From a virus (lineage: Duplodnaviria; Heunggongvirae; Uroviricota; Caudoviricetes): 12,001 nucleotides of DNA. Both the position numbers and the translations under genes were made by a program. The notes under the pieces were generated by a model. That model was given only the letters and a program-made list of their open reading frames with translations, made no database searches and had not been told where the DNA came from. This document shows positions 1-12,001 of this stretch, piece after piece. The number at the start of each line of letters is the position of its first letter. Position 1 is the first letter of the stretch. Location of the stretch: positions 1 through 12,001 of the IMG/VR virus record IMGVR_UViG_2711768053_000012; one strand, given 5' to 3'.

Positions 1-256
1 TGTTGGTTCCCATTGTTTCAAGGTCGATCATCAGGTGGTACCACACTCTGCTGGTGGATGTGATAACGTGATGACCGTTCACCGCAATTAAGGAATCTGC
101 CGTCTCGCCAGTTTCATTATCGCTGGCGTGGTCCTGAGCGCTGCCAGCATTCTCCTTGTGTGGATGTTCAGCGCCTTCCATTTCCTCCGGATCATTTTCC
201 TGAACTTCAACCTGATTCTCTTCATCGAATGTTTCCTGGCATGTTGCGTCGCCCAT
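1..256 (-). CDS. Putative phage exonuclease, N-terminal 85 codons only (gene continues past left edge of window)
   Basis: Own translation of the minus strand: ATG at 256..254, open frame to position 2, giving [15 protein letters not shown]...[17 protein letters not shown]. The MIDLETMGT stretch resembles the Exo I motif of DnaQ-like 3'-5' exonucleases. Absent from the ORF track because there is no stop inside the window. The plus-strand ORF 128..397 is its antisense shadow. Confidence 0.4.
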
Positions 257-397
257 CACCGCACCACAATCAGGGCAGTTGCCGCCACCGATCTGACCGC
301 AGGCGGTGCAGACTTTTTTTGTTTTAACCTCATTACAGATTTAAGGGTGAACAAATCCCTGCCATTGCTGGCATATAAAAATGAAACCGGATATTAA

Positions 398-601
398 TTA
401 CGGTGCTGTTTTAAGTCCTGCCGGGATTTCGTTATTGTCCATGCGAATAACTTTATCAACCGGATAACAGTTGCCGGGAATTTTCTGTTCCGCTGCGGCA
501 GCCATGCATTCTTTCATTGAGTCATGTATACCAATAACAAGATCGACTGGTTCGCCAGTATTAAGAAAAACTGTCAGAACGAGTGCAAATGCTGTATTCA
601 T
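398..601 (-). CDS. Hypothetical small protein (67 aa) with hydrophobic N-terminus
   Basis: Internal Met of track ORF 398..655 chosen as start because of an AAGGA Shine-Dalgarno about 9 nt upstream on the minus strand. Product MNTAFALVLTVFLNTGEP... has a signal-peptide-like or membrane N-terminus. Its start lies 3 nt after the stop of the upstream gene 604..786. The longer start at 655 cannot be excluded. Confidence 0.4.
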   Translation of the reverse strand: MNTAFALVLTVFLNTGEPVDLVIGIHDSMKECMAAAAEQKIPGNCYPVDKVIRMDNNEIPAGLKTAP

Positions 602-603
602 TG

Positions 604-786
604 TCAGCGTCCTTTTTGCATCAGGCGTAAACGGGCCAGCATTGAAACAATGCATATTTGATTTAATAGCTCCCGTTCGTGTTTTCTCTTATTAATGGCA
701 TCTTCAGTAAATACAGGGTTACTGATTCTGACACCAATTTCAAAACAACCTTCAGACGTATTGACGTTTGGTAATAACGTTTCCAT
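604..786 (-). CDS. Hypothetical small early-left protein (60 aa)
   Basis: Track ORF with GAGGA Shine-Dalgarno 7 nt upstream of the ATG at 786 (minus strand); tightly packed with the next gene. No recognisable motif. Confidence 0.45.
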   Translation of the reverse strand: METLLPNVNTSEGCFEIGVRISNPVFTEDAINKRKHERELLNQICIVSMLARLRLMQKGR

Positions 787-803
787 TATCGCGTCCTCAA
801 CAA

Positions 804-967
804 TGAATTTTGTGATGCGGTGCCTGGTGCCTCCAGGTGACGTTAACCAGTTAACAATTAACGCCGGAATACAGGGAAACCAACTCCATAAAACAAATAC
901 GGAGTACCGATCACTTTTTTAACTGTTCCGCGTGCGCTGAGCCGCATTCACCGCATCACAAAATTCA
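804..967. repeat. Perfect 19-bp inverted repeat (TGAATTTTGTGATGCGGTG at 804-822, CACCGCATCACAAAATTCA at 949-967) flanking a 126-bp spacer
   Basis: Read directly from the sequence. Lies in a roughly 560-bp stretch (787-1345) with no convincing ORF on either strand. The spacer contains further palindromic elements (GTTAACCAGTTAAC, CCTGGTGCCTCCAGG). Confidence 0.8.
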
Positions 968-1354
968 CTTTAAAAAGGGCGGACATCAGCCAGCAATGAA
1001 ACTGATGCCGCCAAAAGGTAATCAACATGGGTTGTTGCAGCGGGGTTGTCACTCAGGCGTATGGTCAACCTGACAACCCGGTGTCCTCAACAGGGGGAAG
1101 GAATAACCCCGCCATACGTACCGCCGCGCCATTTCGCGGAGTGCCACAACCGGAAGCGCACGGTCGAATTAAATTTAACGACACCGTACAGTGAGACGAA
1201 CTTCGCCGTGCGCTTTCGCGTTATGCCCTGACTTTTCAGGGATATATCCTTTCAGTAAACTGTCAGTGCCGGATGCTCACCCGTGTCCGGCGCACGCACT
1301 CCACCTGACCCGCGGAGAACTCCTTAATTACCAACCCTCAGGAGGGTGAAATTT

Positions 1355-1546
1355 ATGACACAAGAAGAAAAAATAATGTTTCTTATGCGCCTGGCTGTGG
1401 AAACCTTTAACGCCCATTGCCAGGTGTCCATTTCACCATCTCACGCCATTTCTCTTGCTACCGAGCAAATGGGGGAGATTGACGTCATTTACGATAAATT
1501 TGAGGCATTCCTGGATAAGAAGCTTATGGCAGAGAAGCGTCAATAA
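1355..1546 (+). CDS. Hypothetical small protein (63 aa), plus-strand gene inside a leftward operon
   Basis: ATG at 1355 preceded by a consensus AGGAGG 9 nt upstream; the track start at 1346 is a GTG in the same frame. Product MTQEEKIMFLMRLAVETFNAHCQ... Its 3' end overlaps the 3' end of the convergent minus-strand gene 1524..2129 by 23 nt. Confidence 0.45.
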   Translation: MTQEEKIMFLMRLAVETFNAHCQVSISPSHAISLATEQMGEIDVIYDKFEAFLDKKLMAEKRQ

Positions 1547-2129
1547 TTCTCATTACCCATCGTAAATATACCGGAGTGGGCTTGACGTTGTGTTTTTCAA
1601 GCTCGCTCTTCATTACTTCCTGCAACTTTGAGCTGATAATAAACAAATCAGGTTTATCGTTATTATTTTTATCAGCATCGTCTTTTTTTGTTTTCGACTC
1701 TTGTGGTGAATGCTCGAAAGTAACTTGCAGGGTATTATTTTTAGCGTCCGCAGAGCCTAAAGTATGTGCATATGGATGTGCTATTGTGCGCCCCTGTAAA
1801 TTTGCATCGTTTTCTAAATCTTTTGATTTCAACAGAACATCAGCAAGACTCTGAATCATGCAGAGATAATCAAAAGCAGTTGCCGTTTCTGTTCTGATTG
1901 ATGAAAGAACATGGCCATTCACGCAAACAGAAATTACCCGTTCATTAACATCGCTTTCCTGCTTTTGATTATCAGAACCATATAACCCAGAAAAAGCATT
2001 GCGCACATTACGAACCATATTATCGATGGTTTCTTTTTTAGCGGATGCCGGGTCAATTTCCACCAGGCTATCACTGAGTGTCGTTGCAGCAATTGTCTGG
2101 ATTTCTTTTGGTAAATCTTTAAATTCCAT
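1524..2129 (-). CDS. Hypothetical protein (201 aa), AT-rich, hydrophilic
   Basis: Track ORF with GAGG Shine-Dalgarno 8 nt upstream of the ATG at 2129; follows the upstream gene (stop at 2152) after a 22-nt gap. Lys/Asp/Asn-rich; no recognised domain. Appears AT-richer than neighbours by eye. Confidence 0.6.
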   Translation of the reverse strand: MEFKDLPKEIQTIAATTLSDSLVEIDPASAKKETIDNMVRNVRNAFSGLYGSDNQKQESDVNERVISVCVNGHVLSSIRTETATAFDYLCMIQSLADVLLKSKDLENDANLQGRTIAHPYAHTLGSADAKNNTLQVTFEHSPQESKTKKDDADKNNNDKPDLFIISSKLQEVMKSELEKHNVKPTPVYLRWVMRIIDASLP

Positions 2130-2151
2130 TATTAGCCTCGTTGGTTAGCTA

Positions 2152-2370
2152 TTAACGCGGGTATGTAATCATTCTGGCAACGCTTAATGCCGCTGCCTTT
2201 GTCAGACTGGCGATATCCTGCTCCAGAGCGGACAGATTTTCAGCCTGCTTAGCCCTGGCTTCATTGGCCCATTTCAGATCCTGCGCTGCATTAATTTTCT
2301 GGCGCATCCACTCATAAAGTTCATCATCGGTATAGTCTGGCGCGATGATGACGGGTTCTCGTTTCTGCAT
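2152..2370 (-). CDS. Hypothetical small phage protein (72 aa)
   Basis: Track ORF; same orientation and tight spacing with flanking leftward genes. Product MQKREPVIIAPDYTDDELYEWMRQKINAAQ... Confidence 0.55.
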   Translation of the reverse strand: MQKREPVIIAPDYTDDELYEWMRQKINAAQDLKWANEARAKQAENLSALEQDIASLTKAAALSVARMITYPR

Positions 2371-2400
2371 ACTGAATTCCTCGCGGTGCTGTTTCGCTTA

Positions 2401-2529
2401 TCAGCCGTTAGATTTTGCCGAACTGGAAAGCGCCTGTTCAAATTCGCTGAAGCTGAGGACTTCTTCGCCTTCGGCAAGGCCTTCGAAGTATTCTTCGTAA
2501 GCCTTTTCCATGATTGTGTCGAAATCCAT
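2401..2529 (-). CDS. ydaG: YdaG-like small protein (42 aa)
   Basis: Below the size cutoff of the ORF track; found by my own reverse-complement translation: MDFDTIMEKAYEEYFEGLAEGEEVLSFSEFEQALSSSAKSNG. ATG at 2529, TGA at 2403-2401. Matches my recollection of E. coli Rac prophage YdaG. Start lies 2 nt after the ydaF-like stop. Confidence 0.6.
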   Translation of the reverse strand: MDFDTIMEKAYEEYFEGLAEGEEVLSFSEFEQALSSSAKSNG

Positions 2530-2530
2530 A

Positions 2531-2686
2531 TCACTCACCTGAGTTTCTTTCCAGCCAGCGACGGGCACCATTTTCGGTTTTAAACGTTTTGCTTATGGTA
2601 TACGTCATCGCGGTGAATGTGCCGTCCTGGTTGGGAAACACGCCGTATACCAGAGATTCGTTGTTGCCAAGATCGATAGTATCCAT
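2531..2686 (-). CDS. ydaF: YdaF-like small protein (51 aa, DUF1391-like)
   Basis: Internal Met of track ORF 2531..2764 with GAGG Shine-Dalgarno 5 nt upstream. Product MDTIDLGNNESLVYGVFPNQDGTFTAMTYTISKTFKTENGARRWLERNSGE matches my recollection of Rac prophage YdaF. The 77-aa extended form is less likely. Confidence 0.6.
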   Translation of the reverse strand: MDTIDLGNNESLVYGVFPNQDGTFTAMTYTISKTFKTENGARRWLERNSGE

Positions 2687-2864
2687 GCTGACCTCATTTC
2701 CCCTTAACGCCGGGGTAGCGGAACAAAAACCTGCTGCATAGTTAAAGTTGAACCCTGCCGTCATGTTCTTACGCCTCGGGCTGGCTACTTAACCCCTGAC
2801 CACTGCCTGGTAACTCGAAGTATTGCCCTGCATTCTGTGGGGCGGGGTGGGTTGGTATGCAATA

Positions 2865-2893
2865 AATCTAAAAGTATTTAGTTTTATAGTCAA
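2865..2893 (-). promoter_or_regulatory. pL-like leftward promoter with overlapping operator palindrome
   Basis: On the minus strand: -35 TTGACT (plus 2888-2893), 17-nt spacer, -10 TAGATT (plus 2865-2870). Overlaps the imperfect palindrome AATCTAA-AAGTAT-TTAGTTT at 2865-2884, which has the same 7-6-7 architecture as sites next to the cro-like gene. Confidence 0.45.
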
Positions 2894-2910
2894 GGAAAAT
2901 CTAAATTAAT

Positions 2911-2938
2911 TTAAAAAAAGGTCGGCATAACCGACCTT
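2911..2938 (-). terminator. Rho-independent terminator downstream of the repressor gene
   Basis: Minus-strand hairpin AAGGTCGG-ttatg-CCGACCTT followed by a 7-T run, immediately after the repressor stop at 2960. Confidence 0.6.
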
Positions 2939-2959
2939 AAGTTCAAGAACATGGCAGGG

Positions 2960-3607
2960 TTATAGGTTGAACTGTACACCTTTTGCTACGGCAACAATTT
3001 TACACTCTGGCGTAAGCAAGGATGATTGATAGCGCGGATTGAGAGGGCTTAAATACACAAGTTTTCCATCAATAACTAATTTTTTTATAGTCATAGACGG
3101 TTCATTTGTAAGAGGATCTGGAACTATTACAGCGACGATACTGCCATTTTTATAACTTTCTCCTGGTCTTAGGATCACAGTGGCACCAACTGGGATACTT
3201 GGCGACCCTGAGGGGTTATGCATAGTGTCATCAGGCATTGAAACGGCAAAATCACCTTCCACTACATCAAAGAATGTGGTGATCCTATCGACATTTCCCA
3301 TTGTTTTCTCTCCTTCTAAGATTAGGAAAGAAATCGCGTCACCCCACGAAAAGTAGGGGATCTTGGTGCCTGGATTGCTCTGCACAAAAGATAGTTCAGG
3401 AGACGATACTCCATACAGGAGATAGGACTCAGTAGTTCCTAATGCTTGGGCTAACTTACTTAGAGCTTTGCTGCCGGGTTCGTTTAGATCTTTCTCCCAG
3501 TACCCTATAGTAACCCCAGTCACGCCTGAAAGCTTACCCAGTTCTACTTGGGTGAGTCCCTTATCTTTTCTGAGTTTCTTAAGCCTGATGCCAAGGCTTT
3601 CCATCAT
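2960..3607 (-). CDS. CI-like prophage repressor (N-terminal HTH_XRE, C-terminal S24 LexA-type self-cleaving peptidase)
   Basis: 215 aa. N-terminal HTH (LTQVELGKLSGVTGVTIGYWE). C-terminal S24 signatures: Ser in AVSMPD and Lys in IKKLVIDGKLVYLSPLNPRYQ, the latter closely resembling lambda CI [27 protein letters not shown] Shine-Dalgarno upstream of the ATG at 3607. Divergent from the cro-like gene. Confidence 0.9.
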   Translation of the reverse strand: MMESLGIRLKKLRKDKGLTQVELGKLSGVTGVTIGYWEKDLNEPGSKALSKLAQALGTTESYLLYGVSSPELSFVQSNPGTKIPYFSWGDAISFLILEGEKTMGNVDRITTFFDVVEGDFAVSMPDDTMHNPSGSPSIPVGATVILRPGESYKNGSIVAVIVPDPLTNEPSMTIKKLVIDGKLVYLSPLNPRYQSSLLTPECKIVAVAKGVQFNL

Positions 3608-3623
3608 TTTCTCCCGCGAGTTG

Positions 3624-3690
3624 AATATAAATTATTTTAGATTGCATTGACCTAAAAAAAATTATCCTGTAATCTAAAAATACTTAGATT
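3624..3690. promoter_or_regulatory. Immunity-region operator/promoter (OR/pR-like): two 7-6-7 palindromic operators and a rightward promoter
   Basis: Perfect palindrome AATCTAA-AAATAC-TTAGATT at 3671-3690 and near-perfect AATATAA-ATTATT-TTAGATT at 3624-3643. Candidate pR: -35 TTGACC 3647-3652, 17-nt spacer, weak -10 TAATCT 3670-3675 overlapping the operator. Sits between the divergent repressor and cro-like genes. Confidence 0.5.
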
Positions 3691-3703
3691 TTAGGAGAGT
3701 GAA

Positions 3704-3931
3704 ATGCGAGTTGATGAACTTGTTCAGTTTTTTGGCTCTGTTCAGAGGGTCGCTGATTTTTATGGGATAACCCGCGAAGCTATTTACATGTGGCGTAAGC
3801 GCCCCGGTGAAATAGTTCCGAAAGGGAGAGCTGCGGAAGCTGCTGCATACTCCAAGGGAAAATTATCTTTGAACCCAGAGCTTTACAAAAAGAAGGATAC
3901 CACTCAGAGCGAAAGGAAGAGTGATTCATGA
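3704..3931 (+). CDS. Cro-like HTH regulator (75 aa)
   Basis: GGAGAG Shine-Dalgarno 6 nt upstream. The motif ELVQFFGSVQRVADFYGITREAIYMWRKRPGEIVP parallels P22 Cro (VIDHFGTQRAVAKALGISDAAVSQWKEVIPE, from memory). First gene rightward of the repressor. Confidence 0.8.
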   Translation: MRVDELVQFFGSVQRVADFYGITREAIYMWRKRPGEIVPKGRAAEAAAYSKGKLSLNPELYKKKDTTQSERKSDS

Positions 3932-4353
3932 AAATCAAGCATGAGCACATCCGCATGGCGATGAATGCCTGGGCGCATCCGGATGGTGAAAAAGTTCCGG
4001 CAGCTGAAATAACCCGGGCTTATTTTGAGCTGGGTATGACGTTCCCGGAACTGTATGACGACAGCCATCCGGAAGCCCTGGCTCGCAATACTCAGAAAAT
4101 TTTCCGCTGGGTGGAGAAAGACACCCCTGATGCGGTTAAAAAAATTCAGGCGTTGTTACCAGCGATCGAAAAAGCAATGCCACCTCTGCTGGTGGCCCGA
4201 ATGCGCAGCCACAGTTCAGCCTATTTTCGGGAGCTGGTGGAGACGCGGGAACGACTGGTGAGAGATGCTGATGATTTTGTCGCAGTGGCGATCGCTGGTT
4301 TCAATCAGATGAATCGTGGTGGTCCGGCGGGAAATGCCCTGGTGATGCACTAA
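3928..4353 (+). CDS. ydaT: YdaT-like protein (CII functional analogue family), 141 aa
   Basis: Start overlaps the cro-like stop (ATGA). N-terminus MKIKHEHI and C-terminal ...VMH match my recollection of Rac/CP-933P YdaT; it occupies the cII position after cro. AGGAAGAG Shine-Dalgarno upstream. Confidence 0.6.
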   Translation: MKIKHEHIRMAMNAWAHPDGEKVPAAEITRAYFELGMTFPELYDDSHPEALARNTQKIFRWVEKDTPDAVKKIQALLPAIEKAMPPLLVARMRSHSSAYFRELVETRERLVRDADDFVAVAIAGFNQMNRGGPAGNALVMH

Positions 4354-4376
4354 AAGCACGGTGTTCGGAGTTTTTT

Positions 4377-5324
4377 ATGAGCAGCAAGCTTCATGGTCTT
4401 GTCTGGGAAGGGTGCGCCTTCACCGGCATGATCTTATCCAGGGTGGCAGTAATGGCTCGCCTTGCAGATTACAGCAATGACGAAGGTGTGTCATGGCCTG
4501 CAGTGGAGACCATTCGTCGTCAGATTGGGGCAAAGAGTGAATCAACGGTTAAAGCTGCGATAGCGGAACTGGAAAAGAACGGCTGGCTGACGAAGGAGGA
4601 ACGTAAGGTCGGTGGGCGTAATGTAAGCAATATCTACCGCCTTAATGTGGAAAAACTCGAAGCAGCAGCAGCGGCGGCGCGTGAGGCATATAAACCGAAA
4701 AGAAAAATTAGCCAGGCAAAAAATGACCCGTCAAATATTGCCCCCTCAACGGTTGACCCCTCAAATTTTGATGGATCAACCATTGATAAAAAACAGTCGG
4801 ATAGGGGGGCGATGGTTGGCCCCGATCCGTCAGTATTAAAACCTGATCCGTCAGATAAAAGATCTTTTCGTCCGGACGCTTCGCAACCGGACCCGCAGAC
4901 GGCTGAACAGGATTTTTTAACCCGACACCCTGACGCGGTTGTGTTCAGTGCGAAAAAACGCCAGTGGGGCAGCCAGGAAGATTTGGCGTGTGCGCAGTGG
5001 ATCTGGGGACGAATCGTGAGTCTTTACGAGCAGGCTGCCAGCGATGATGGCGAAATCATGCGACCGAAAGAACCCAACTGGACTGCATGGGCCAATGATG
5101 TGCGCACAATGCGGATGCTGGATGGCAGAACTCACAGACAAATTTGCGAAATGTTTGGTCGGGTACAGCGGGATCCATTCTGGGTAAAAAACGTCATGAG
5201 CCCGTCAAAGCTTCGCGAAAAATGGGATGAGCTGGTTATTCGTCTGGGGCGTTCGCCTGTACAGCGTTGCGTGAATCACATTTCTGAACCGGATACCGAA
5301 ATTCCGCCGGGCTTCAGGGGGTAA
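4377..5324 (+). CDS. Phage replication initiation protein (N-terminal HTH DNA-binding domain, low-complexity linker, C-terminal domain; lambda O-like organisation)
   Basis: 315 aa. N-terminal region LSRVAVMARLADYSNDEGVSWPAVETIRRQIGAKSESTVKAAIAELEKNGWL is typical of phage replication-initiator HTH domains. The linker DPSNIAPSTVDPSNFDGS...PDPSVLKPDPSDK is encoded by iteron-like DNA repeats. Sits after the cro/cII-like genes. Confidence 0.7.
   Translation: MSSKLHGLVWEGCAFTGMILSRVAVMARLADYSNDEGVSWPAVETIRRQIGAKSESTVKAAIAELEKNGWLTKEERKVGGRNVSNIYRLNVEKLEAAAAAAREAYKPKRKISQAKNDPSNIAPSTVDPSNFDGSTIDKKQSDRGAMVGPDPSVLKPDPSDKRSFRPDASQPDPQTAEQDFLTRHPDAVVFSAKKRQWGSQEDLACAQWIWGRIVSLYEQAASDDGEIMRPKEPNWTAWANDVRTMRMLDGRTHRQICEMFGRVQRDPFWVKNVMSPSKLREKWDELVIRLGRSPVQRCVNHISEPDTEIPPGFRG
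4725..4905 (+). repeat. Iteron-like direct repeats (candidate replication origin) inside the replication initiator gene
   Basis: GACCCGTCAAATATTG (4725-4740), GACCCCTCAAATTTTG (4755-4770), GATCCGTCAGTATTAAA (4824-4840), GATCCGTCAGATAAAA (4845-4860), plus degenerate copies near 4741-4750 and 4890-4899. Consensus GAYCCNTCA followed by an A/T-rich tail. Confidence 0.55.
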
Positions 5325-5366
5325 GTGTTGATTTGAGGTTATGAAGTTATTTTCTCAGGAGAGTTT

Positions 5367-5768
5367 ATGGGGACTATTTATACCGAAGAACAGCGGGAAA
5401 GATTACAGCGTCATATCGTTGACCTTGTGCGTAAAAACGGGCGTATGACAATGCCACAACTGGCATCGGCAACATATGCTTCACATGATTCCATTCGCCG
5501 GTACCTGAAGATGCTGGTGAGCGAGGGCGAAGTGTATGTTGTCAGCGGAAAAGGGGTATTCCTTTCAGAGAGGGTTTACCGTGAATGGCTGGCAAGTTCG
5601 GCAAGAAAAGCAAGGGTTATCCGCAAACCAGCACAAAAACAGGGTAAGGCAGGAGCACAACCCTATGACCGGCACCAGAACATAATTTGCCGTGAGTGCC
5701 GGAAGAGTGAAGTTATGCAGCGTGTACTGGCGTTCTATCAGGGAGATTTTCAGGAGGTGATGGAGTGA
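5367..5768 (+). CDS. Hypothetical phage protein with probable winged-helix DNA-binding N-terminus (133 aa)
   Basis: AGGAGA Shine-Dalgarno 5 nt upstream of ATG. The segment NGRMTMPQLASATYASHDSIRRYLKMLVSEGEV is wHTH-like; basic C-terminal tail. No helicase-loader features. Confidence 0.6.
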   Translation: MGTIYTEEQRERLQRHIVDLVRKNGRMTMPQLASATYASHDSIRRYLKMLVSEGEVYVVSGKGVFLSERVYREWLASSARKARVIRKPAQKQGKAGAQPYDRHQNIICRECRKSEVMQRVLAFYQGDFQEVME

Positions 5769-6070
5769 GGGTGAGGGTTTATATCGCCGGTCCGATGACC
5801 GGGTATAAAAATTTCAACCGTGAGGCGTTCCACAAGGCGGAAGAGGAACTGAAACGGGAAGGGCATACAGTCTTAAACCCAGCAGTACTTCCGGACGGAC
5901 TGACGCAGCCACACTATATGGATATTTGCATGGCAATGATTCGTTGTGTGGATGCGATTTACATGCTGAAAGGCTGGCAGCGGTCAGCAGGTGCTAAGGC
6001 AGAACTGGCACTGGCGGAGAAGCTGGGGCATGCAGTTATTTTTCAGGAGGCAACCAGTGAGCAACATTAA
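5765..6070 (+). CDS. DUF4406-like protein (nucleoside 2-deoxyribosyltransferase-like fold), 101 aa
   Basis: GTG start at 5765 overlapping the upstream stop, AGGAGG 7 nt upstream. N-terminal VYIAGPMTGYKNFNREAFHKAEEELKREGHTVLNP matches my recollection of the DUF4406 signature (YIAGPMTG...NP). Confidence 0.65.
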   Translation: MRVRVYIAGPMTGYKNFNREAFHKAEEELKREGHTVLNPAVLPDGLTQPHYMDICMAMIRCVDAIYMLKGWQRSAGAKAELALAEKLGHAVIFQEATSEQH

Positions 6071-6611
6071 TTACCAGGCACTGCGAATGGCGGCAGAAAA
6101 TGCAACCCCTGGCGAATGGTGTTCTGATGATTATGGGGTAATTGCCGATGCCGGACTGAACGCAAATTACTACATAGCATCATGCTCAGGACCAGATAAT
6201 CGCGCCAATAAGCGATTCATAGCGGCAGCCAATCCGGCTACCGTGCTGGCAGTGCTTGATGAACGGGGAGCCCAAAGCAAACGCATTGCAGAGCTGGAAG
6301 CTAATCTTGTGGCGCTGGCGGCGGAGAATGCAGGGCTGAATAAATTTATCGCACAGAGTTGCTACGTGTTTGATGGCGAGCAGGATGAAATATCTGATGC
6401 GTATATCTGCGCAAGAGACGGAGGTATGCCGCAAACCACGGCTACAGATGCTCTCCTGGCTGATGTACGGGCGGTGGCGTTTGACGAACTTCGCGCGGCG
6501 TTTGTCAGGCACGCAAAAGTTGCAGGACTGGATGATGCCGATACCGTAACGCTTAAGGAAGTGACAGAAGCATTGTTGCATTGTGCGGAACAGATTCGCT
6601 CGCCTGAATAA
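6057..6611 (+). CDS. Ead/Ea22-like phage protein
   Basis: The track ORF starts at 5991 inside the previous gene. I prefer the in-frame GTG at 6057 (AGGAGG 6045-6050, 6 nt upstream); an ATG at about 6090 is an alternative. The N-terminal motif INYQALRMAAENATPGEW resembles the conserved start of Ead/Ea22-like proteins as I recall them. Confidence 0.6.
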   Translation: MSNINYQALRMAAENATPGEWCSDDYGVIADAGLNANYYIASCSGPDNRANKRFIAAANPATVLAVLDERGAQSKRIAELEANLVALAAENAGLNKFIAQSCYVFDGEQDEISDAYICARDGGMPQTTATDALLADVRAVAFDELRAAFVRHAKVAGLDDADTVTLKEVTEALLHCAEQIRSPE

Positions 6612-6705
6612 TTAAATTTAGTGTTGCAAATAAAATTTAATCCTTAACCGGAGGGATTCCTACACCCTCAGAACATCAGGAGGCCGCCCGAAAGGGCGGT
6701 AATGA

Positions 6706-6924
6706 ATGGTCACATTATTCAGAAAAAAATATCCACGAAAGAGTAGAACAACAGAATTCCTGTTTCTCATTCTGTTTATCGTGTTAATGATACCGATATC
6801 CCCGCTAATTTTTGTCTGGGCAATCGGGAAAATAATTGAGCCAGTTATTGAATTGTATAACGACGTGGTATGGGCGTCGTTCAACACACTGCACAATAAA
6901 ATTAATCCGTATAAGGAGAACTGA
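6706..6924 (+). CDS. Hypothetical small membrane protein (72 aa; basic N-terminus plus one transmembrane helix)
   Basis: Track ORF. Product MVTLFRKKYPRKSRTTEFLFLILFIVLMIPISPLIFVWAIGK... Stop at 6922-6924, 1 nt before the next gene's ATG. Region is AT-rich by eye. An AGGAGG at 6678-6683 is separated from the ATG by a GNRA-loop hairpin. Confidence 0.5.
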   Translation: MVTLFRKKYPRKSRTTEFLFLILFIVLMIPISPLIFVWAIGKIIEPVIELYNDVVWASFNTLHNKINPYKEN

Positions 6925-6925
6925 T

Positions 6926-7444
6926 ATGACCACTATTACCAGAGAAAACGCGGAGATTAAATCATTCATCACTGGTTTCCTGAGCGACCCGGCGCACGAT
7001 ATCCAATCTTCAGACAGCCTGCTTGCCAATGTGTTTCGTATCGCACTGGCGTCACTGGAAGCAGAGCCAGTGGCGTGGAAGGCAACCTTCACGCAAATTG
7101 ACAATGAATATAATACGTTCACTGCTCTGTATTCTGACAAAGCAGAAGTCGAACGGTGGGTGCGACTGCATGAAATAGGTGACTTTCGGGCAGAAATAAC
7201 ACCGCTTTACGCAGCGCCGTCAGCGCCGGTAGCTCCAGATGGTTGGATAAGCTGTAGTGAGCGAATGCCAAAAGATGGTCAGCACGTAATTATTTTATGT
7301 GATGGCGCATTCGTTCTTTATGCGCAATATCGGGACGGTGAGTTTTTTGATGTCGTCCGCAATGGTGAGGAATTCTTCGAAACGCAGAGCCGCAATGTAA
7401 CCCACTGGATACTGCTACCGGAGCCGCCGCAGGAGGTGAACTGA
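6926..7444 (+). CDS. Phage protein with C-terminal DUF551-like domain (172 aa)
   Basis: The track ORF starts at 6836 inside the previous gene; ATG at 6926 has an AAGGAGA Shine-Dalgarno 6 nt upstream. C-terminal ...THWILLPEPPQEV matches my recollection of the DUF551 C-terminal motif. Confidence 0.65.
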   Translation: MTTITRENAEIKSFITGFLSDPAHDIQSSDSLLANVFRIALASLEAEPVAWKATFTQIDNEYNTFTALYSDKAEVERWVRLHEIGDFRAEITPLYAAPSAPVAPDGWISCSERMPKDGQHVIILCDGAFVLYAQYRDGEFFDVVRNGEEFFETQSRNVTHWILLPEPPQEVN

Positions 7445-7836
7445 TGAATGAAGGCGACAATGTTATCACCCTGGTGCAGCCAAAATCAGAGGAGGAAGGG
7501 CTCCTTAACGTTGTGATAACCGACAGAAAAAGCGGCGAGCAAAAATACTGTCAGCATATCCGTACAACAATTTCAGAAGTGAAGCGTACGATTACCTGCA
7601 ACCGATGCGGATTGGCTTTAGAACCGTTCGAACTTGTTCTCGACCGTGCGAGAAACGGTGAAAACATCGTGTCAGAGATTAAATCACTCTATGCAAAGCG
7701 GGATGCTCTTCGTGAAGCTGTGGCAAAACTTGAACGTGAAGAGAAAAACGCCAAAGCCCGGTTGCGAGCAGCCAGGACTGCAATACTGTATGCGGAAAAT
7801 GACCTTAAAAATATTGGGCAGGAGGTGAATCGATGA
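7444..7836 (+). CDS. Hypothetical phage protein (130 aa) with Cys pair and C-terminal coiled-coil-like region
   Basis: ATG overlaps the upstream stop (TGATG), AGGAGG 7 nt upstream. CQH...C...CNRC residues and a heptad-like charged C-terminus (AKRDALREAVAKLEREEKNAKARLRAAR). Confidence 0.65.
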   Translation: MNEGDNVITLVQPKSEEEGLLNVVITDRKSGEQKYCQHIRTTISEVKRTITCNRCGLALEPFELVLDRARNGENIVSEIKSLYAKRDALREAVAKLEREEKNAKARLRAARTAILYAENDLKNIGQEVNR

Positions 7837-7916
7837 CCTGGCCTGAGGCATTTACTACGGTAGGAATTGCGATGGCGGTGGCGCTGGTGGTGTATTCGAT
7901 TTGCCGCTGGGGATAA
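7833..7916 (+). CDS. Small hydrophobic peptide (27 aa), translationally coupled
   Basis: Below the ORF-track cutoff; my own translation is MTWPEAFTTVGIAMAVALVVYSICRWG. ATG overlaps the upstream stop (ATGA), with a consensus AGGAGG (7820-7825) 7 nt upstream. Single predicted transmembrane segment. Confidence 0.45.
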   Translation: MTWPEAFTTVGIAMAVALVVYSICRWG

Positions 7917-8127
7917 AAACGGTTTGCGGGAAAAGGAGAGTTAAGTAGAATTGCTGCGGGTGCTTGAGGCTATCTGCCTCAGGCATGAACACCAAAAGGC
8001 AGATAGAGAAAAGCCCCAGTTAACATTACGCGTCCTGCAAGACGCTTAACATTAATCTGAGGCCCAATCTATGTCTCACAAATGTAGGTTAGCCTCTTAC
8101 GTGCCGAAAGGCAAGGAGAAGCAGGCT

Positions 8128-8283
8128 ATGAAGCAGCAAAAGGCGATGTTAATCGCCCTGATCGTCATCTGTTTAACCGTCATAGTGACGGCACTGGTAA
8201 CGAGGAAAGACCTCTGCGAGGTACGAATCCGAACCGGCCAGACGGAGGTCGCTGTCTTCACAGCTTACGAACCTGAGGAGTAA
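8128..8283 (+). CDS. hokD: Hok/Gef family type I toxin (51 aa)
   Basis: Product MKQQKAMLIALIVICLTVIVTALVTRKDLCEVRIRTGQTEVAVFTAYEPEE matches my recollection of E. coli HokD (RelF) and aligns closely with Gef/Hok. AAGGAGA Shine-Dalgarno 8 nt upstream of the ATG at 8128. The track ORF starts at an upstream in-frame ATG (8071) giving 70 aa. The upstream leader is highly structured and a terminator follows. Confidence 0.85.
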   Translation: MKQQKAMLIALIVICLTVIVTALVTRKDLCEVRIRTGQTEVAVFTAYEPEE

Positions 8284-8351
8284 GAGACCAGGCGGGGGAG
8301 AAATCCCTCGCCACCTCTGATGTGTCAGGCATCCTCAACGCACCCGCACTT

Positions 8352-8376
8352 AACCCGCTTCGGCGGGTTTTTTATT
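8352..8376 (+). terminator. Rho-independent terminator after hok
   Basis: Hairpin AACCCGC-ttcg-GCGGGTT followed by TTTTTTATT. The 21 bp TAACCCGCTTCGGCGGGTTTT (8351-8371) recur identically at 10186-10206. Confidence 0.75.
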
Positions 8377-8421
8377 GGTTGACAAAATTATGAATATGCA
8401 CCAATATCTTGGTTGACAAAA
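8375..8421 (+). promoter_or_regulatory. Tandem 13-bp direct repeats TTGGTTGACAAAA (8375-8387 and 8409-8421) containing a consensus -35 TTGACA; candidate promoter/operator of the cassette
   Basis: Read from the sequence; repeats are 34 bp apart. The first TTGACA (8379-8384) with a 17-nt spacer gives a weak -10 CAATAT (8402-8407), placing the second repeat near the predicted transcription start. Confidence 0.45.
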
Positions 8422-8456
8422 GTCGTTTTTTGCACGGATTAGGCGGAGAAGTGTCT

Positions 8457-9050
8457 ATGCAGAAGCATCCATTCCCTTGGGAGTTCTTTCCTGAGTTAAC
8501 AGAGGATCGTTTAACCATTATAGCTGAGGAGTTGCTCAGGATACAGGATATTACTCATGAGTTATTGTCATCGCCCTATGATGATAATTACACTCGTGGT
8601 GGTTGTACATTTGGGCGTCAGCGGCAGGCGTTGCTACAAATGTGCATACGAAAGACATATGACTGGTTAAGACTACTTAATCCTGGCATGGATCTTACGT
8701 TTTCAATTGGGAATGTCCCTATTCGTTTCTTTACTGATGACGCAGATAACCCCAAGAAACGCGGTTTTTTCAAAAGAAATGATGCTGATCGACTCTTTGA
8801 GTCAGAGGAGACCACTCCAACTATGCATCGCTTTGTGGTTGAAAAGCCTGAATTTGAAGGCGAGGGTGGTAGAGTCATTTTTAATGGCTATAACGTGTTT
8901 GGTGAGATCGTGTCAACTTGGACATATGGTGCGGACCGTGTTGTTATGCTGAACTCTGTCGATGATGTACCTCCAGCACCGGTACCTATCGAACTAGAAC
9001 CTATCAGTGCGTCTAAGACTGAGAAGGAAAAGAAACAAAATAGCAAATAG
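8457..9050 (+). CDS. Hypothetical protein, first gene of the cassette (197 aa from ATG 8457; 213 aa if ATG 8409 is used)
   Basis: Track ORF 8409..9050. I prefer the in-frame ATG at 8457 (GGAG about 10 nt upstream) because the 8409 ATG lies inside the direct-repeat/-35 element. No recognisable catalytic motif; acidic Pro-rich C-terminus and Lys-rich tail. AT-richer than the flanks by eye. Confidence 0.6.
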   Translation: MQKHPFPWEFFPELTEDRLTIIAEELLRIQDITHELLSSPYDDNYTRGGCTFGRQRQALLQMCIRKTYDWLRLLNPGMDLTFSIGNVPIRFFTDDADNPKKRGFFKRNDADRLFESEETTPTMHRFVVEKPEFEGEGGRVIFNGYNVFGEIVSTWTYGADRVVMLNSVDDVPPAPVPIELEPISASKTEKEKKQNSK

Positions 9051-9060
9051 TGGGTGAAAT

Positions 9061-10182
9061 GTGTTTAACGGTACTAATTTAAGACTTGCTCGTCTGTATC
9101 ACGAGCTATCTCTGGAGCAGGTTGCTGAGAAGGTTGAAAAAACACGCCAGTATGTACAGCGACTGGAGTCTGGTTCAGCTACTCCATCCCCAGAGCTTAT
9201 AAATAAATTAGCCGAGGTTTTGCGCGTGAAGCCCGCCTTTTTCGAAGGGCAGGAACATTCTCCTGTTAATGAAGAGATTGTACATTTTCGTAAACGCGCC
9301 TCGACAAGGATGTCAACGAAGCTATCAACACTCGCTAAGGCTGAGTTTTATCGTCGTTTTATTGATGTATTTGAAGATAACCTTAATTTGTCACCTGTTC
9401 GATTTCCTGAATTTCGTGTCCATACACAAGAAGATATCGAGCGAGCGGCAGAAAAATGTCGTATTGAGTGGGGCTTAGGCTTTGGCCCAATTGAAAATAT
9501 GACTCGCCTTGCCGAGAAACTTGGGGCGTTTGTTACTTCATTTGACTCCGTTTCGGATGAAGTAGATGCACTGTCTGTTCCTCTACGAAGGCCTTTTATT
9601 GTTCGAAATACAGCTAAAAATTCACCTTGTAGGCAACGCTTTGATATTGCTCATGAGGTTGCCCATTTGATTCTTCATGAAGGAATTTCTACTGGGGATA
9701 GATTAACTGAATCCCAGGCAAACCGCTTTGCCTCTGCTCTGTTGCTTCCCAGAACGTCGATGGCGAAATATTTTCCAAGACCTGTGGGGGGGAGGATAAA
9801 TTGGCAGGGACTAAGCCAATTTAAGTTGACATGGAAAGTAAGTAAGGCTGCCATTGTTTACAGGGCTCATCAATTAGGACTTTTGACTGATGAGCAGTAC
9901 AGAACTGCATTTATGGGGTTGAAACGGAAAGGGGAAGCTATTGATGAAAAAGAAGATTATCTAATCCCTCATGAGCGTCCTGAGTTATTCCGTCGGGCTT
10001 TATCGTTTTTATTTGAAGAGTTAGGATACGACCCACAGCGTATAGCTGATGAAATGGATATAGAAGTGGACATTTTTTATGAGTTAGTAGGAGATGATCT
10101 TCCTGCGGTTCATGAACTGCCAGGAAGTGGTGATGTTGTTTCACTACAATCTTACCGAACTCTTAGAGGCAAAATTCACTAG
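9061..10182 (+). CDS. Fused HTH_XRE DNA-binding domain plus ImmA/IrrE-family (DUF955/COG2856-type) HExxH zinc metallopeptidase, 373 aa
   Basis: GTG start at 9061, first start after an in-frame stop and 10 nt after the upstream gene's stop. N-terminal HTH (LSLEQVAEKVEKTRQYVQRLESGSATPSPELINKLAEVLRV); HEVAH (HExxH) at about 9652-9666 inside FDIAHEVAHLILHE, typical of ImmA/IrrE peptidases; about 120-aa C-terminal extension. A terminator follows immediately. Confidence 0.8.
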   Translation: MFNGTNLRLARLYHELSLEQVAEKVEKTRQYVQRLESGSATPSPELINKLAEVLRVKPAFFEGQEHSPVNEEIVHFRKRASTRMSTKLSTLAKAEFYRRFIDVFEDNLNLSPVRFPEFRVHTQEDIERAAEKCRIEWGLGFGPIENMTRLAEKLGAFVTSFDSVSDEVDALSVPLRRPFIVRNTAKNSPCRQRFDIAHEVAHLILHEGISTGDRLTESQANRFASALLLPRTSMAKYFPRPVGGRINWQGLSQFKLTWKVSKAAIVYRAHQLGLLTDEQYRTAFMGLKRKGEAIDEKEDYLIPHERPELFRRALSFLFEELGYDPQRIADEMDIEVDIFYELVGDDLPAVHELPGSGDVVSLQSYRTLRGKIH

Positions 10183-10186
10183 GCAT

Positions 10187-10214
10187 AACCCGCTTCGGCG
10201 GGTTTTGTTTTTTC
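10187..10214 (+). terminator. Rho-independent terminator after the cassette (sequence-identical to the hok terminator)
   Basis: Hairpin AACCCGC-ttcg-GCGGGTT followed by TTGTTTTTTCT, beginning 5 nt after the stop at 10182. Confidence 0.75.
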
Positions 10215-10285
10215 TGAGCATCCTGGTTTACAATTCGCACGTCAGCCTGAACACCTGACACCTGCTGCGCCAGCAGAGAAAACCG

Positions 10286-10558
10286 ATGGCGCACAATACC
10301 AAACATCACAATTCTGATACCGACCTTGCCAGCAGGCACGGGCGGCGTTCTCATACATTCAAATATGACTGGTTCCAGCATGATCCATGCACTGAAGAAC
10401 AGGCCGAATGGCTGATTCAGTGTTACCGCAGGCGCGGATGCGAGGTTAAAAAAGCCCTTAGCCTCGACTACCGACATTGGATAATTTCAGTCAGGCTCCC
10501 TTATTCCGAACGCCCGCCGCGTCCGTCCCGCACATTACAGCAACGGATCTGGAGGTAA
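10286..10558 (+). CDS. Hypothetical protein (90 aa), rem-like by position
   Basis: Track ORF ending 1 nt before the YdfU-like start; weak Shine-Dalgarno. Sits directly upstream of the DUF968 gene, as rem does relative to ydfU in E. coli K-12 Qin (recollection of gene order only, no sequence recognition). Confidence 0.4.
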   Translation: MAHNTKHHNSDTDLASRHGRRSHTFKYDWFQHDPCTEEQAEWLIQCYRRRGCEVKKALSLDYRHWIISVRLPYSERPPRPSRTLQQRIWR

Positions 10559-10559
10559 C

Positions 10560-11609
10560 ATGCGGGTATTGCTTCGACCTGTTCTGGTACCGGAACTCGG
10601 GCTGGTGGTCCTTAAGCCTGGTCGTGAATCCATGCAGGTATTTCATAATCCTCGAGTGCTGGTGGAGCCGGAACCGAAAAGCATGCGCAGTCTGCCGTCA
10701 GGAGCTGTTCCTGCCGTTCGCCAGCCGCTCGTGGAAGATAAATCATTACTGCCATTTTTCAGCGATGAGCGGGCGATTCGTGCTGCTGGCGGCGCTGGCG
10801 CATTGTCTGACTGGCTCCTGCGTCATGTTAAATCCTGCCAGTGGCCTCATGGTGACTATCACCACAGCGAAACCGTCATACATCGTTACGGTACCGGCGC
10901 AATGGTGTTGTGCTGGCACTGTGACAACCAGCTGCGCGACCAGACATCAGAATCACTCGGGCAACTTGCTCAACAAAACTTGTCAGCATGGATGATTGAC
11001 GTCATCCGTCACGCAATGAATGGCACACAGGAGCGGGAATTATCGCTAGCTGAATTATCCTGGTGGGCGGTCTGCAATCGGGTAGCGGACGCGCTACCGG
11101 AGGCAGTATTACGTCGTTCTCTGGGGTTACGTGCGGAAAAAATCCGTTCGGCGTACCGCGAAAGTGACATCGTACCGGGAGAGCAGACAGCCACCAGCAT
11201 ACTGAAGCAGCGCACAAAAAATATTGTGCTACCGCCTCACGCCCACCAGCAACAGAACCCACCACAGGAAAAGACGGTGGTCAGCATTGCCGTTGATCCG
11301 GAGTCTCCTGAATCTTTCATGAAACGACCTAAACGTCGCCGTTGGGTTAATAAGAAATACACGCGCTGGGTAAAGACACAGCCGTGTGCGTGTTGTGGTA
11401 AGCCAGCCGACGATCCCCATCACCTGATTGGTCACGGTCAGGGAGGGATGGGAACAAAGGCCCACGATATTTTCACGCTACCGTTGTGCCGGGAACATCA
11501 CAACGAACTTCATGCGGATCTGCTGGCGTTCGAAGAAAAGCATGGTTCTCAGGTTGATTTAATTTTTCGTTTTCTTGATCACGCCTTTGCAACCGGCGTG
11601 CTCGGGTAA
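10560..11609 (+). CDS. DUF968-like protein, YdfU-like (349 aa) with C-terminal Cys/His-rich region
   Basis: GGAGG Shine-Dalgarno 4 nt upstream of ATG. C-terminal CACCGKPADDPHHLIGHG...CREHHNELH looks like a zinc-binding/HNH-like motif. Length and position (after a hok toxin, before nin-region genes) match my recollection of Qin YdfU. Confidence 0.65.
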   Translation: MRVLLRPVLVPELGLVVLKPGRESMQVFHNPRVLVEPEPKSMRSLPSGAVPAVRQPLVEDKSLLPFFSDERAIRAAGGAGALSDWLLRHVKSCQWPHGDYHHSETVIHRYGTGAMVLCWHCDNQLRDQTSESLGQLAQQNLSAWMIDVIRHAMNGTQERELSLAELSWWAVCNRVADALPEAVLRRSLGLRAEKIRSAYRESDIVPGEQTATSILKQRTKNIVLPPHAHQQQNPPQEKTVVSIAVDPESPESFMKRPKRRRWVNKKYTRWVKTQPCACCGKPADDPHHLIGHGQGGMGTKAHDIFTLPLCREHHNELHADLLAFEEKHGSQVDLIFRFLDHAFATGVLG

Positions 11610-11621
11610 AAGAGGTTACTG

Positions 11622-11996
11622 ATGCGTATAGAGTTTGTTTTGCCTTACCCACCGACGGTGAACACCTACTGGCGACGTCGTGGCAGCACATATTTTGTAT
11701 CAAAAGCCGGTGAGCGTTATCGCCGGGATGTGGCACTTATTGTTCGCCAGCAGCGACTGAAATTAAACCTGTCCGGAAGGCTAGCGATAAAGATTATTGC
11801 AGAGCCACCGGATAAGCGCCGCCGCGACCTGGACAATATCCTGAAGGCACCACTGGATGCGCTGACGCATGCCGGACTACTTATAGACGACGAGCAGTTT
11901 GATGAAATCAATATTGTGCGCGGTCAGCTCGTTCCTGGTGGACGTCTGGGGGTGAAGATTTACCCCATAATGCATGAAGAGCAGGTCAAAAAATGA
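11622..11996 (+). CDS. rusA: RusA-family Holliday junction resolvase
   Basis: 124 aa. PPDKRRRDLDNILKAPLDALTHAGLLIDDEQ matches the RusA catalytic region (E. coli RusA [30 protein letters not shown], from memory). AGAGG Shine-Dalgarno upstream. An ATG overlapping its stop (11993) probably starts the next nin-region gene. Confidence 0.85.
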   Translation: MRIEFVLPYPPTVNTYWRRRGSTYFVSKAGERYRRDVALIVRQQRLKLNLSGRLAIKIIAEPPDKRRRDLDNILKAPLDALTHAGLLIDDEQFDEINIVRGQLVPGGRLGVKIYPIMHEEQVKK

Positions 11997-12001
11997 AGCT
12001 G

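Follow-up and report, generated by a model that had tools for sequence, protein, structure and literature searches.

Does a short terminator hairpin that recurs among the accessory genes of lambdoid prophages only end transcripts, or is it also the joint through which gene cassettes are gained, lost and exchanged? The question is raised by a 12,001-nucleotide (nt) stretch of viral DNA, referred to here as the window (positions 1 to 12,001 of the IMG/VR record IMGVR_UViG_2711768053_000012), which corresponds to the early-right region of an Escherichia coli lambdoid prophage. In the window two identical copies of a 21-bp hairpin, called T (core CCCGCTTCGGCGGGTTTT; T1 is the left copy and T2 the right copy), bracket a two-gene RosmerTA anti-phage cassette that follows the toxin gene hokD. 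We consider it probable, with a good share of doubt, that T, besides being a terminator and insulator, acts as a short-homology joint for the gain, loss and exchange of cassettes at an accessory slot of E. coli lambdoid phages.

Two copies of one terminator hairpin bracket a RosmerTA cassette

The features on which the argument is built are as follows.

8128-8283, plus strand: hokD, a 51-amino acid (aa) Hok/Gef toxin (Pfam HOK_GEF, 1.2e-23; annotated as hokD in the related locus L001)
8351-8371, plus strand: T1, the left hairpin copy, where the hok mRNA is predicted to end and the cassette is joined on its left; the only copy kept in empty-site relatives
8457-9050, plus strand: rmrT, 197 aa, RosmerTA toxin component (PADLOC RmrT PDLC03929, E-value 1.2e-92, profile positions 1-197 of 198)
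9061-10182, plus strand: rmrA, 373 aa, RosmerTA antitoxin with an XRE-type helix-turn-helix (HTH) and an ImmA/IrrE (M78) Zn-peptidase domain (PADLOC RmrA PDLC03943, E-value 4e-201)
10186-10206, plus strand: T2, the right hairpin copy, predicted cassette terminator and right joint, followed by the same flank as the single T of empty sites

An exact search places the 21-mer TAACCCGCTTCGGCGGGTTTT at 8351-8371 and at 10186-10206, both on the plus strand, with no third copy in the window even when 3 mismatches are allowed; 200 dinucleotide-preserving shuffles returned zero matches (chance expectation 0). The identity of these two hairpins had been pointed out in an earlier sequence-only reading of the window, which also described the interval between them as the two-gene cassette and nothing else, and both statements are borne out. 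Each copy folds into a stem of 7 bp (AACCCGC/GCGGGTT) closed by a UUCG loop, with a U-run behind it; the energies of the two are -14.4 and -16.0 kcal/mol, and a terminator scan calls T1 and T2 alike. With its GC-rich stem-loop, a direct U-run and a position 3' of a gene on the same strand, T has the features of an intrinsic terminator and is predicted to be one. The reverse strand does not offer a good U-run and T is therefore a predicted one-way terminator of rightward transcription. T1 is situated 67 nt past the hokD stop codon and T2 starts 3 nt past the stop codon of rmrA, the HTH-peptidase gene. According to the repeat search the two copies diverge directly downstream of the 21-mer, reading TTTTTTATT after T1 and TTTTGTTTT after T2.

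The genes rmrT and rmrA lie on one strand with a gap of 10 nt between them, an arrangement consistent with a RosmerTA toxin and its adjacent antitoxin. RmrA matches the Pfam families HTH_3 (1.5e-12) and Peptidase_M78 (8e-17), and the rmrT product matched no Pfam family. The RosmerTA family has been defined and experimentally validated for anti-phage protection with alleles other than the present one (Millman et al. 2022). The GC content of the cassette is 42-45% as against 49-57% in its flanks.

Empty sites and insertion polymorphism

Among 5426 complete E. coli genomes surveyed, 4769 have matches within the stretch from hok to ydfU, for the most part to these two genes, and 23 encode the cassette of the window. 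A single T joining hok to the same downstream sequence is found in thousands of E. coli prophages and genomes. The sequence-only reading had proposed to look for such single-hairpin genomes, and they are very numerous. Strain JB2 (locus L002) is an example, in which the empty site reads hok..CACTTAACCCGCTTCGGCGGGTTTT|GTTTTTTCCTGGC.., that is, the left flank of the window (97.1% identity), one T and the right flank of the window (88.1% identity). Like a moron, the cassette separates genes that related phages have side by side, as in L002 and thousands of genomes. It is an insertion at the hairpin, and the site is polymorphic for it.

The record closest to the window, with 98.3% identity across 7900-10700, is strain 401651. 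Its genome (NZ_CM129040.1) encodes the Rosmer array at 1486799-1489576 and, in a different prophage, an empty hok-T-ydfU site at 1119060-1120604 (92.8% identical); both substrates for a T-mediated exchange are therefore present in one cell.

Other cargoes between two copies of T

Four anchors were used to scan IMG/VR: T, the tail of hok, the conserved box to the right of the slot and the joint between Doc and T. Six cargo families bracketed by T after hok have been identified, namely three Rosmer subtypes, a Phd/Doc toxin-antitoxin pair, a lipoprotein gene of 130 aa and a module with an HTH protein and an M78 peptidase. The sequence-only reading had also proposed to look for genomes with different cargo between two copies of the hairpin, and there are five such families besides that of the window. 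Downstream sequence of 2.2 kb or more is available for 110 hok loci of IMG/VR; one T is present in 87 of them, a T-bracketed cargo in 17 and a variant T or none in 6. Arrays of three or more units do not occur in the loci sampled.

The second Rosmer allele is found at the same site in BEN2908 (L004) and in 237 genomes in all, with amino acid identities to the window of 24% for RmrT and 43% for RmrA. It is bounded by TAACCCGC..TTTT and ATACCCGC..TTTT and is followed by a flank, 'Y', that also follows the single T in the Qin prophage of K-12 (hokD-T-rem). The third subtype is also encoded in the isolated phage Tritos, which carries T-Rosmer-T; such arrays therefore occur in phages recovered as isolates. 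In all cases the offset of the downstream landmark after T2 equals its offset after a lone T, being +38 for flank X, which is that of the window, +27/28 for Y and +32 for a third flank, Z.

The T-to-T period is exactly 1835 bp both in the window (8351-10206) and in L004 (5414-7269), despite gene lengths of 197/373 aa in one and 216/367 aa in the other and identities of 24-43%. This may be a coincidence or reflect a size constraint.

The cargo of L082 and L257, which has a period of 1348 bp, comprises a 119-aa HTH protein, a 158-aa M78 peptidase with a HEXXH motif and a Cys-rich open reading frame (ORF) of 49 aa. It resembles a 'split RmrA' without a recognisable RmrT and may represent an uncharacterised toxin-antitoxin or defence module.

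In the prophage of E. coli O104:H4 FDAARGOS_349 (L128, 2257-3934) the arrangement hok-T-Phd/Doc-T is followed by an HTH/RelE-ParE pair on the opposite strand, such that three toxin-antitoxin systems of different types stand side by side in the nin region of this O104:H4 prophage.

Joints between cassettes and backbones

The right-hand joint was followed in 121 loci anchored on the conserved box, which in the window is reached after a 36-nt spacer and reads CAGCCTGAACA... The end of T lies 33-36 nt 5' of this box in 66 of the 80 loci in which hok precedes and in all but one of the T-ended cargo units; other hok loci have a longer spacer, and about 20 are without any T. The combination of T and flank X is met behind at least nine different left partners, including restriction-modification and Doc units without an upstream hok. 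These hok-less units are Phd/Doc, a C5-methyltransferase unit and a methyltransferase with an NgoMIV-type restriction enzyme, the last of which has a variant of T with a loop one base shorter (AACCCGCTTCGCGGGTTTT). Conversely, the same Doc cassette, ending in T, is found with six different flanks on its right, and in 39 of 46 loci hok-T is located 834-841 bp upstream. Cassettes and backbones thus form a matrix of combinations in which T stands at every joint.

The sequence common to the joints extends from the A-tract to 4-7 nt into the U-run. Since sequences diverge at the A-tract on one side and inside the U-tract on the other, what they share is exactly the hairpin, 18-23 bp in length. The few bases before CCCGC are specific to the unit, and the continuation of the U-run is specific to the backbone.

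Four IMG/VR hok loci (L153, L188, L220 and L194) have a small palindromic insert within the loop of T, for example AACCCGCTTC[AGCGCTGATTTATGGGGATCCCTCAGCGC]TTCGGCGGG, in which TTC is duplicated. It looks like a miniature inverted-repeat transposable element or the footprint of an element that targets hairpin loops.

Is the hairpin a property of the cargo, of hok or of the slot?

The possibility that Rosmer brings its own T was rejected with 80 Rosmer loci of other species, none of which has a T-like hairpin beside the cassette. Two of the 80 have weak matches with 3 mismatches elsewhere, which look like chance, and the five loci inspected have different terminators. The three RmrA alleles of the slot are 32-40% identical to one another, and the identity matrix and a neighbour-joining tree show that they are not monophyletic but interleaved with T-less homologues of Pseudomonas, Halomonas, Acinetobacter, Photobacterium and others.

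That T belongs to hok was likewise rejected. The hokW gene of phage VT2-Sakai (L369, NC_000902, about position 1951) is without T, its homology with the window ending at ..CGCGCTT, exactly where T would begin on the left, which makes this edge of T a mosaic joint as well. Plasmid hok loci match only up to a point short of T and are, as far as match ends indicate, apparently without it. A gene of the YgiW/YdeI family follows hokW in VT2-Sakai, an Stx2 phage.

The sequence-only reading had held that a hairpin recurring after many unrelated genes, with no link to variable cargo, would speak for a common terminator sequence and against an insertion scar. The first half of this was found: a 20-mer of T lies behind numerous unrelated genes of unrelated viral contigs (90 of the 122 occurrences among the matches listed), and it is therefore a recurrent 'good' terminator whose exact hairpin arises or spreads widely. 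The second half was not, as T is tightly linked to cargo at this locus. Across 1.82 Mb of hok-bearing lambdoid loci, sequences like T (at most 2 mismatches) are confined to T1 and T2, the one exception being a loop variant at a single further homologous site. We regard T as a property of the slot, and not of the cargo or of lambdoid terminators in general, because Rosmer and hokW occur without it and because it is confined to the joints in these 1.82 Mb.

The loop variant, AACCCGCTCAGGCGGGTTTT, is situated 3.7-5.7 kb downstream of hok at a single homologous site in L111, L141, L174, L192 and L213.

A probable role for the hairpin in cassette exchange

The junction anatomy is best fitted by recombination inside the identity of T. 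The window holds two tandem units, [hok-T][RosmerTA-T], in a slot at which at least nine units end in T, namely hok/sok, the three Rosmer subtypes, Phd/Doc, the lipoprotein, the HTH and peptidase module and two restriction-modification units. Judged by structure and position, T1 would terminate the hok transcript, and T2 would keep transcription from the cassette promoter, presumably active in the lysogen, out of ydfU, rusA and the antiterminator gene Q. Such shielding accounts for selection for a terminator, and does not account for the same terminator each time.

Cassettes could change backbones by recombination inside the 18-23 bp shared by the copies of T, the likely agents being Red/RecET-type functions of the phage or RecA functions of the host. 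If T2 of an array phage recombined unequally with the single T of another phage, the cassette would end up on a new backbone, which is exactly the kind of product observed. A crossover between T1 and T2 would leave an empty site and release a circle of the cassette and one T, and this circle could re-insert at any resident T to give T-cassette-T again. The duplicated insertion junction and portable recombination site proposed in the sequence-only reading are upheld as far as insertion polymorphism and cargo variability at T are concerned; that the hairpin itself is the site of recombination, like the terminator activity, the pathway and the first capture of each cargo, we infer from the positions of the junctions and the structure of T.

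Several points weigh against this explanation. The best empty-site match to the window with the cassette deleted in silico is 93.7% identical, and near-isogenic prophages with and without the cassette were not found; no recent gain or loss is therefore documented. Neither a circle nor a fresh deletion, the products expected of recombination, has been observed. Identities of 18-23 bp are at or below the usual minimal processing segment of RecA and low for Red. A crossover at T covers the spread and loss of cassettes and not the origin of T-bracketing for a foreign cassette that came without T. In the sample all arrays have hok first, and no T-bracketed cargo was found behind a non-hok unit. The rem, W-type and L014-type cargoes occupy the slot without a second T; they stand between T and the CAGCCTGAACA box and therefore represent a different kind of replacement. 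T2 differs slightly from T1 at its 5' edge (ATACCCGC as against TAACCCGC), and T1 has decayed in some arrays. The terminator activity and the cassette promoter are both predictions, and the sigma-70 scan of 8372-8456 called no promoter.

The decay of T1 beside an intact T2 is seen in the lipoprotein arrays and in one Doc array (AACCCGCTTCGGCGTTTTTT; AACCTACTTCGGCGGTTTTT), that is, in loci of the L143 type (8 loci), in L370 (phage vB_EcoM-606R7) and in L129. A decayed T1 would block deletion by crossover between T1 and T2 and might allow read-through from hok into the cargo.

Alternative explanations

The alternative that survives best, an unlikely one in our judgement, assigns T no role in recombination. 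Units would accrete by random illegitimate recombination, as proposed for morons, under selection for an intact hok mRNA and a strong terminator before Q, and the identical hairpins would come from the backbone terminator being used again or from convergence on one optimal sequence. The recurrence of the 20-mer after unrelated genes indicates that convergence on the exact sequence happens, selection for a terminator 5' of Q is expected from lambdoid biology, no second T marks the joints of the rem, W-type and L014-type cargoes, and the Doc cassettes have mosaic 5' regions that are joined at the start codon of phd. A backbone terminator used again, however, accounts for a single T and not for a duplicated one. 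At least eight unrelated cargo units at the slot share an identical 14-nt stem-loop core, whereas the 80 Rosmer homologue loci elsewhere use other terminators and never T. For every cargo type both joints fall within a few nt of the hairpin edges with the full backbone spacer kept after T2, and T is confined to these joints across the 1.82 Mb of lambdoid DNA.

Rather doubtful is a duplication of T around T-less cargo by hairpin-stimulated template switching (copy-choice), in which synthesis would pause past the hairpin, switch to a foreign template through microhomology in the T-run, return at the A-tract and copy T again. This would explain how cassettes that lack T elsewhere, such as Rosmer with its non-monophyletic alleles, came to be bracketed by it, why the two sides share only 1-3 nt of A/T where they join at the hairpin edges, and why the duplication measures 18-23 bp; nor is a recombinase gene encoded in any of the cassettes. 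The same rare event would, however, have to occur independently for at least six cargoes. The recurrence of the same T2 5' edge (CATA) in four cargo types is not predicted, and template switching alone does not explain one cassette on six backbones, which a crossover at T or in hok does simply.

The attC sites of integrons are 60-140 bp long and imperfect. A bolder proposal, to which we give little credence, sees T as an attC-like 'address' that is either recognised as a hairpin or cruciform by a structure-specific enzyme of the phage (RusA and NinB/NinG-type proteins, encoded nearby, being candidates) or processed by template switching set off by the hairpin. The slot would then be an integron-like platform without an integrase that actively captures T-less defence systems and duplicates T each time.

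It is improbable that T is a dedicated site whose hairpin or cruciform is recognised by an enzyme, in the manner of attC in integrons, of CRISPR repeat duplication or of target-site duplication. A precise, palindromic and conserved element duplicated around unrelated cargoes, with an array-like [unit-T][unit-T] order, speaks for it, and structure-specific nucleases are encoded nearby (RusA, and NinB/NinG-type genes in relatives). The cassettes and the neighbouring genes examined, however, encode no integrase or transposase, the cassette has no terminal inverted repeats, T is a perfect 21-bp hairpin much shorter than attC, and no array with more than two units turned up. The IntI-type recombinase and attI site of an integron were not seen either, there being no recombinase among the window ORFs at 6836-11609 or in the annotated 20-kb neighbourhood of L001. 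The duplication also varies in length and 5' edge, unlike the product of a fixed staggered cut; a transposon with target-site duplication was rejected on the absence of terminal inverted repeats, a shared length of 18-23 bp with differing 5' edges and the absence of a transposase from every cargo.

A single ancient Rosmer insertion at the hok terminator that diverged in place, its hairpins kept identical by selection or gene conversion, has almost nothing left to it and is close to refuted by the identity matrix and neighbour-joining tree: paired boxes after T1 in all three alleles suggest homologous 5' ends, but the RmrA alleles are only 32-40% identical and interleave with T-less homologues, the adjoining hok module is about 90-97% identical, and non-Rosmer cargoes are bracketed likewise.

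Organisation of the slot and its surroundings

The slot is situated in the early rightward operon, between replication and nin-type genes on one side and ydfU, rusA and Q on the other, Q following in relatives. The remaining features are listed below.

7833-7916, plus strand: ORF of 28 aa (MTWPEAFTTVGIAMAVALVVYSICRWG*), its stop codon being the left edge of the variable accessory slot
7958-8133, plus strand: region matching the Rfam 'sok antitoxin' family, the hok/sok regulatory RNA region up to the hok start codon (RF01794, 121.7 bits, E-value 6e-28)
8375-8421, plus strand: 5' control region of the cassette with two exact TTGGTTGACAAAA boxes (8375-8387 and 8409-8421), candidate -35 element and RmrA operator
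10207-10269, plus strand: backbone flank X (36 nt) and the conserved box CAGCCTGAACACCTGACACCTGCTGCG, the box at 10243, just 5' of the 90-aa gene
10286-10558, plus strand: ORF of 90 aa, backbone, downstream of the slot
10560-11609, plus strand: DUF968/YdfU (Pfam DUF968, 2e-76)
11622-11996, plus strand: RusA resolvase, from the annotation of L001 (98% identical)

The Phd/Doc unit of L130 begins directly after the homologue of the 28-aa ORF and replaces hok, and most matches to the hok module start at about window position 7910-7938. A 70-aa ORF with an ATG start (8071-8283) occupies the position of mok, sharing the frame and the stop codon of hok. Together with the Hok/Gef peptide and the sok RNA region it makes up the set of components of a hok/sok type I toxin-antitoxin system.

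The two TTGGTTGACAAAA boxes of the window are exact 13-nt repeats. Although their proteins are only 24-43% identical, all three Rosmer alleles have two boxes of the TGGTTGAC type, about 32-36 bp apart, directly after T1: TGGTTGAC occurs twice in L203 (the L203/L368 type), and L004 has TGGTTGAC and the variant TGGTTTAC (about 5446-5490). The paired boxes probably form an operator and -35 region for the HTH domain of RmrA.

Relation to known systems

RosmerTA, hok/sok, morons, prophage defence hotspots and the shuffling of promoter-early stem-loop (PeSL) cassettes are already known. We have not found described a lambdoid slot in which at least nine units all end on their 3' side in one and the same terminator hairpin, which is also duplicated around tandem cassettes. 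In the literature searched, the coverage of which is incomplete, there is no prior description of cassettes bracketed by the hok terminator or of a defence hotspot in the lambdoid nin region.

The closest relatives are the PeSL cassettes of T4-type phages, for which homology between motifs has been proposed to drive shuffling and mini-circles have been detected (Arbiol et al. 2010, PMC2839356; Comeau et al. 2014, PMC4122927). Cassette exchange at T would be the lambdoid counterpart of this shuffling. What the two systems share is a short motif, present in repeated copies and including a terminator stem-loop, on either side of dispensable genes that vary within a hyperplastic region; gains, losses and replacements of genes stop at the motif, which also insulates transcription. 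The present locus does not have the composite PeSL motif of a conserved sigma-70 promoter and a stem-loop: only the 18-21 bp terminator is repeated, and the sequence after T1, including the promoter, differs with the type of cargo. Unlike the T4-type phages, with about 50 motifs per genome, the phages concerned are temperate and lambdoid and have one such locus with multi-gene defence or toxin-antitoxin cargoes, and neither circles nor other recombination products have been observed in them.

The cassette resembles the morons of lambdoid phages (Juhala/Hendrix 2000; Cumby et al. 2012, PMC3594210) in being self-contained, with a control region, genes and a terminator of its own, in its deviant GC content, in standing between genes that are adjacent in relatives and in its probable expression from the prophage. 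As to the promoter and terminator that a moron brings, the terminator is predicted and two TTGACA boxes follow T1, with no sigma-70 promoter called. Moron accretion, in the summary given in PMC2839356, involves no conserved flanking sequence and proceeds by illegitimate recombination; here, by contrast, the same hairpin bounds every T-ended unit and the joints coincide with the hairpin edges. In the 'linker' model of Botstein and Campbell, as the same article summarises it, short conserved sequences between modules are the crossover points at which module placement and regulation are kept. That model concerns functional modules of the core genome, whereas the linker here is the terminator of an accessory cassette and can be duplicated into tandem units.

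The slot shares with the prophage and satellite defence hotspots of P2 and P4 (Rousset et al. 2022, PMC9122126; PMC13586616) a fixed position in a temperate phage at which alternative anti-phage or toxin-antitoxin systems are swapped quickly among phages that are alike in other respects. Those hotspots are set by flanking core genes, and the lambdoid slot is delimited at the nucleotide level by a repeated hairpin; the 2026 paper on P2/P4 (PMC13586616) mentions neither a terminator nor a hairpin. With integron cassettes the slot has in common the tandem units of cargo and 3' hairpin site and a predicted excision to a one-site circle. It differs in the absence of an integrase, in a perfect 21-bp terminator hairpin in place of attC, in cargoes with their own promoters and in a maximum of two units seen.

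Significance

Whether accessory and defence genes come to be set so cleanly into phage genomes by linker-mediated homologous exchange or by random illegitimate recombination followed by selection is an old and unresolved argument. The locus described here offers a case at nucleotide resolution in the best-studied phage group, with at least nine units, mostly of defence or toxin-antitoxin function. It makes the argument testable in E. coli with existing strains and the isolated phage Tritos. Should crossovers indeed take place at the hairpin, this would explain the rapid turnover of prophage-borne immunity, would predict that new defence systems are to be found between copies of T after hok, and would provide a simple design rule for placing insulated cargo into temperate phages.

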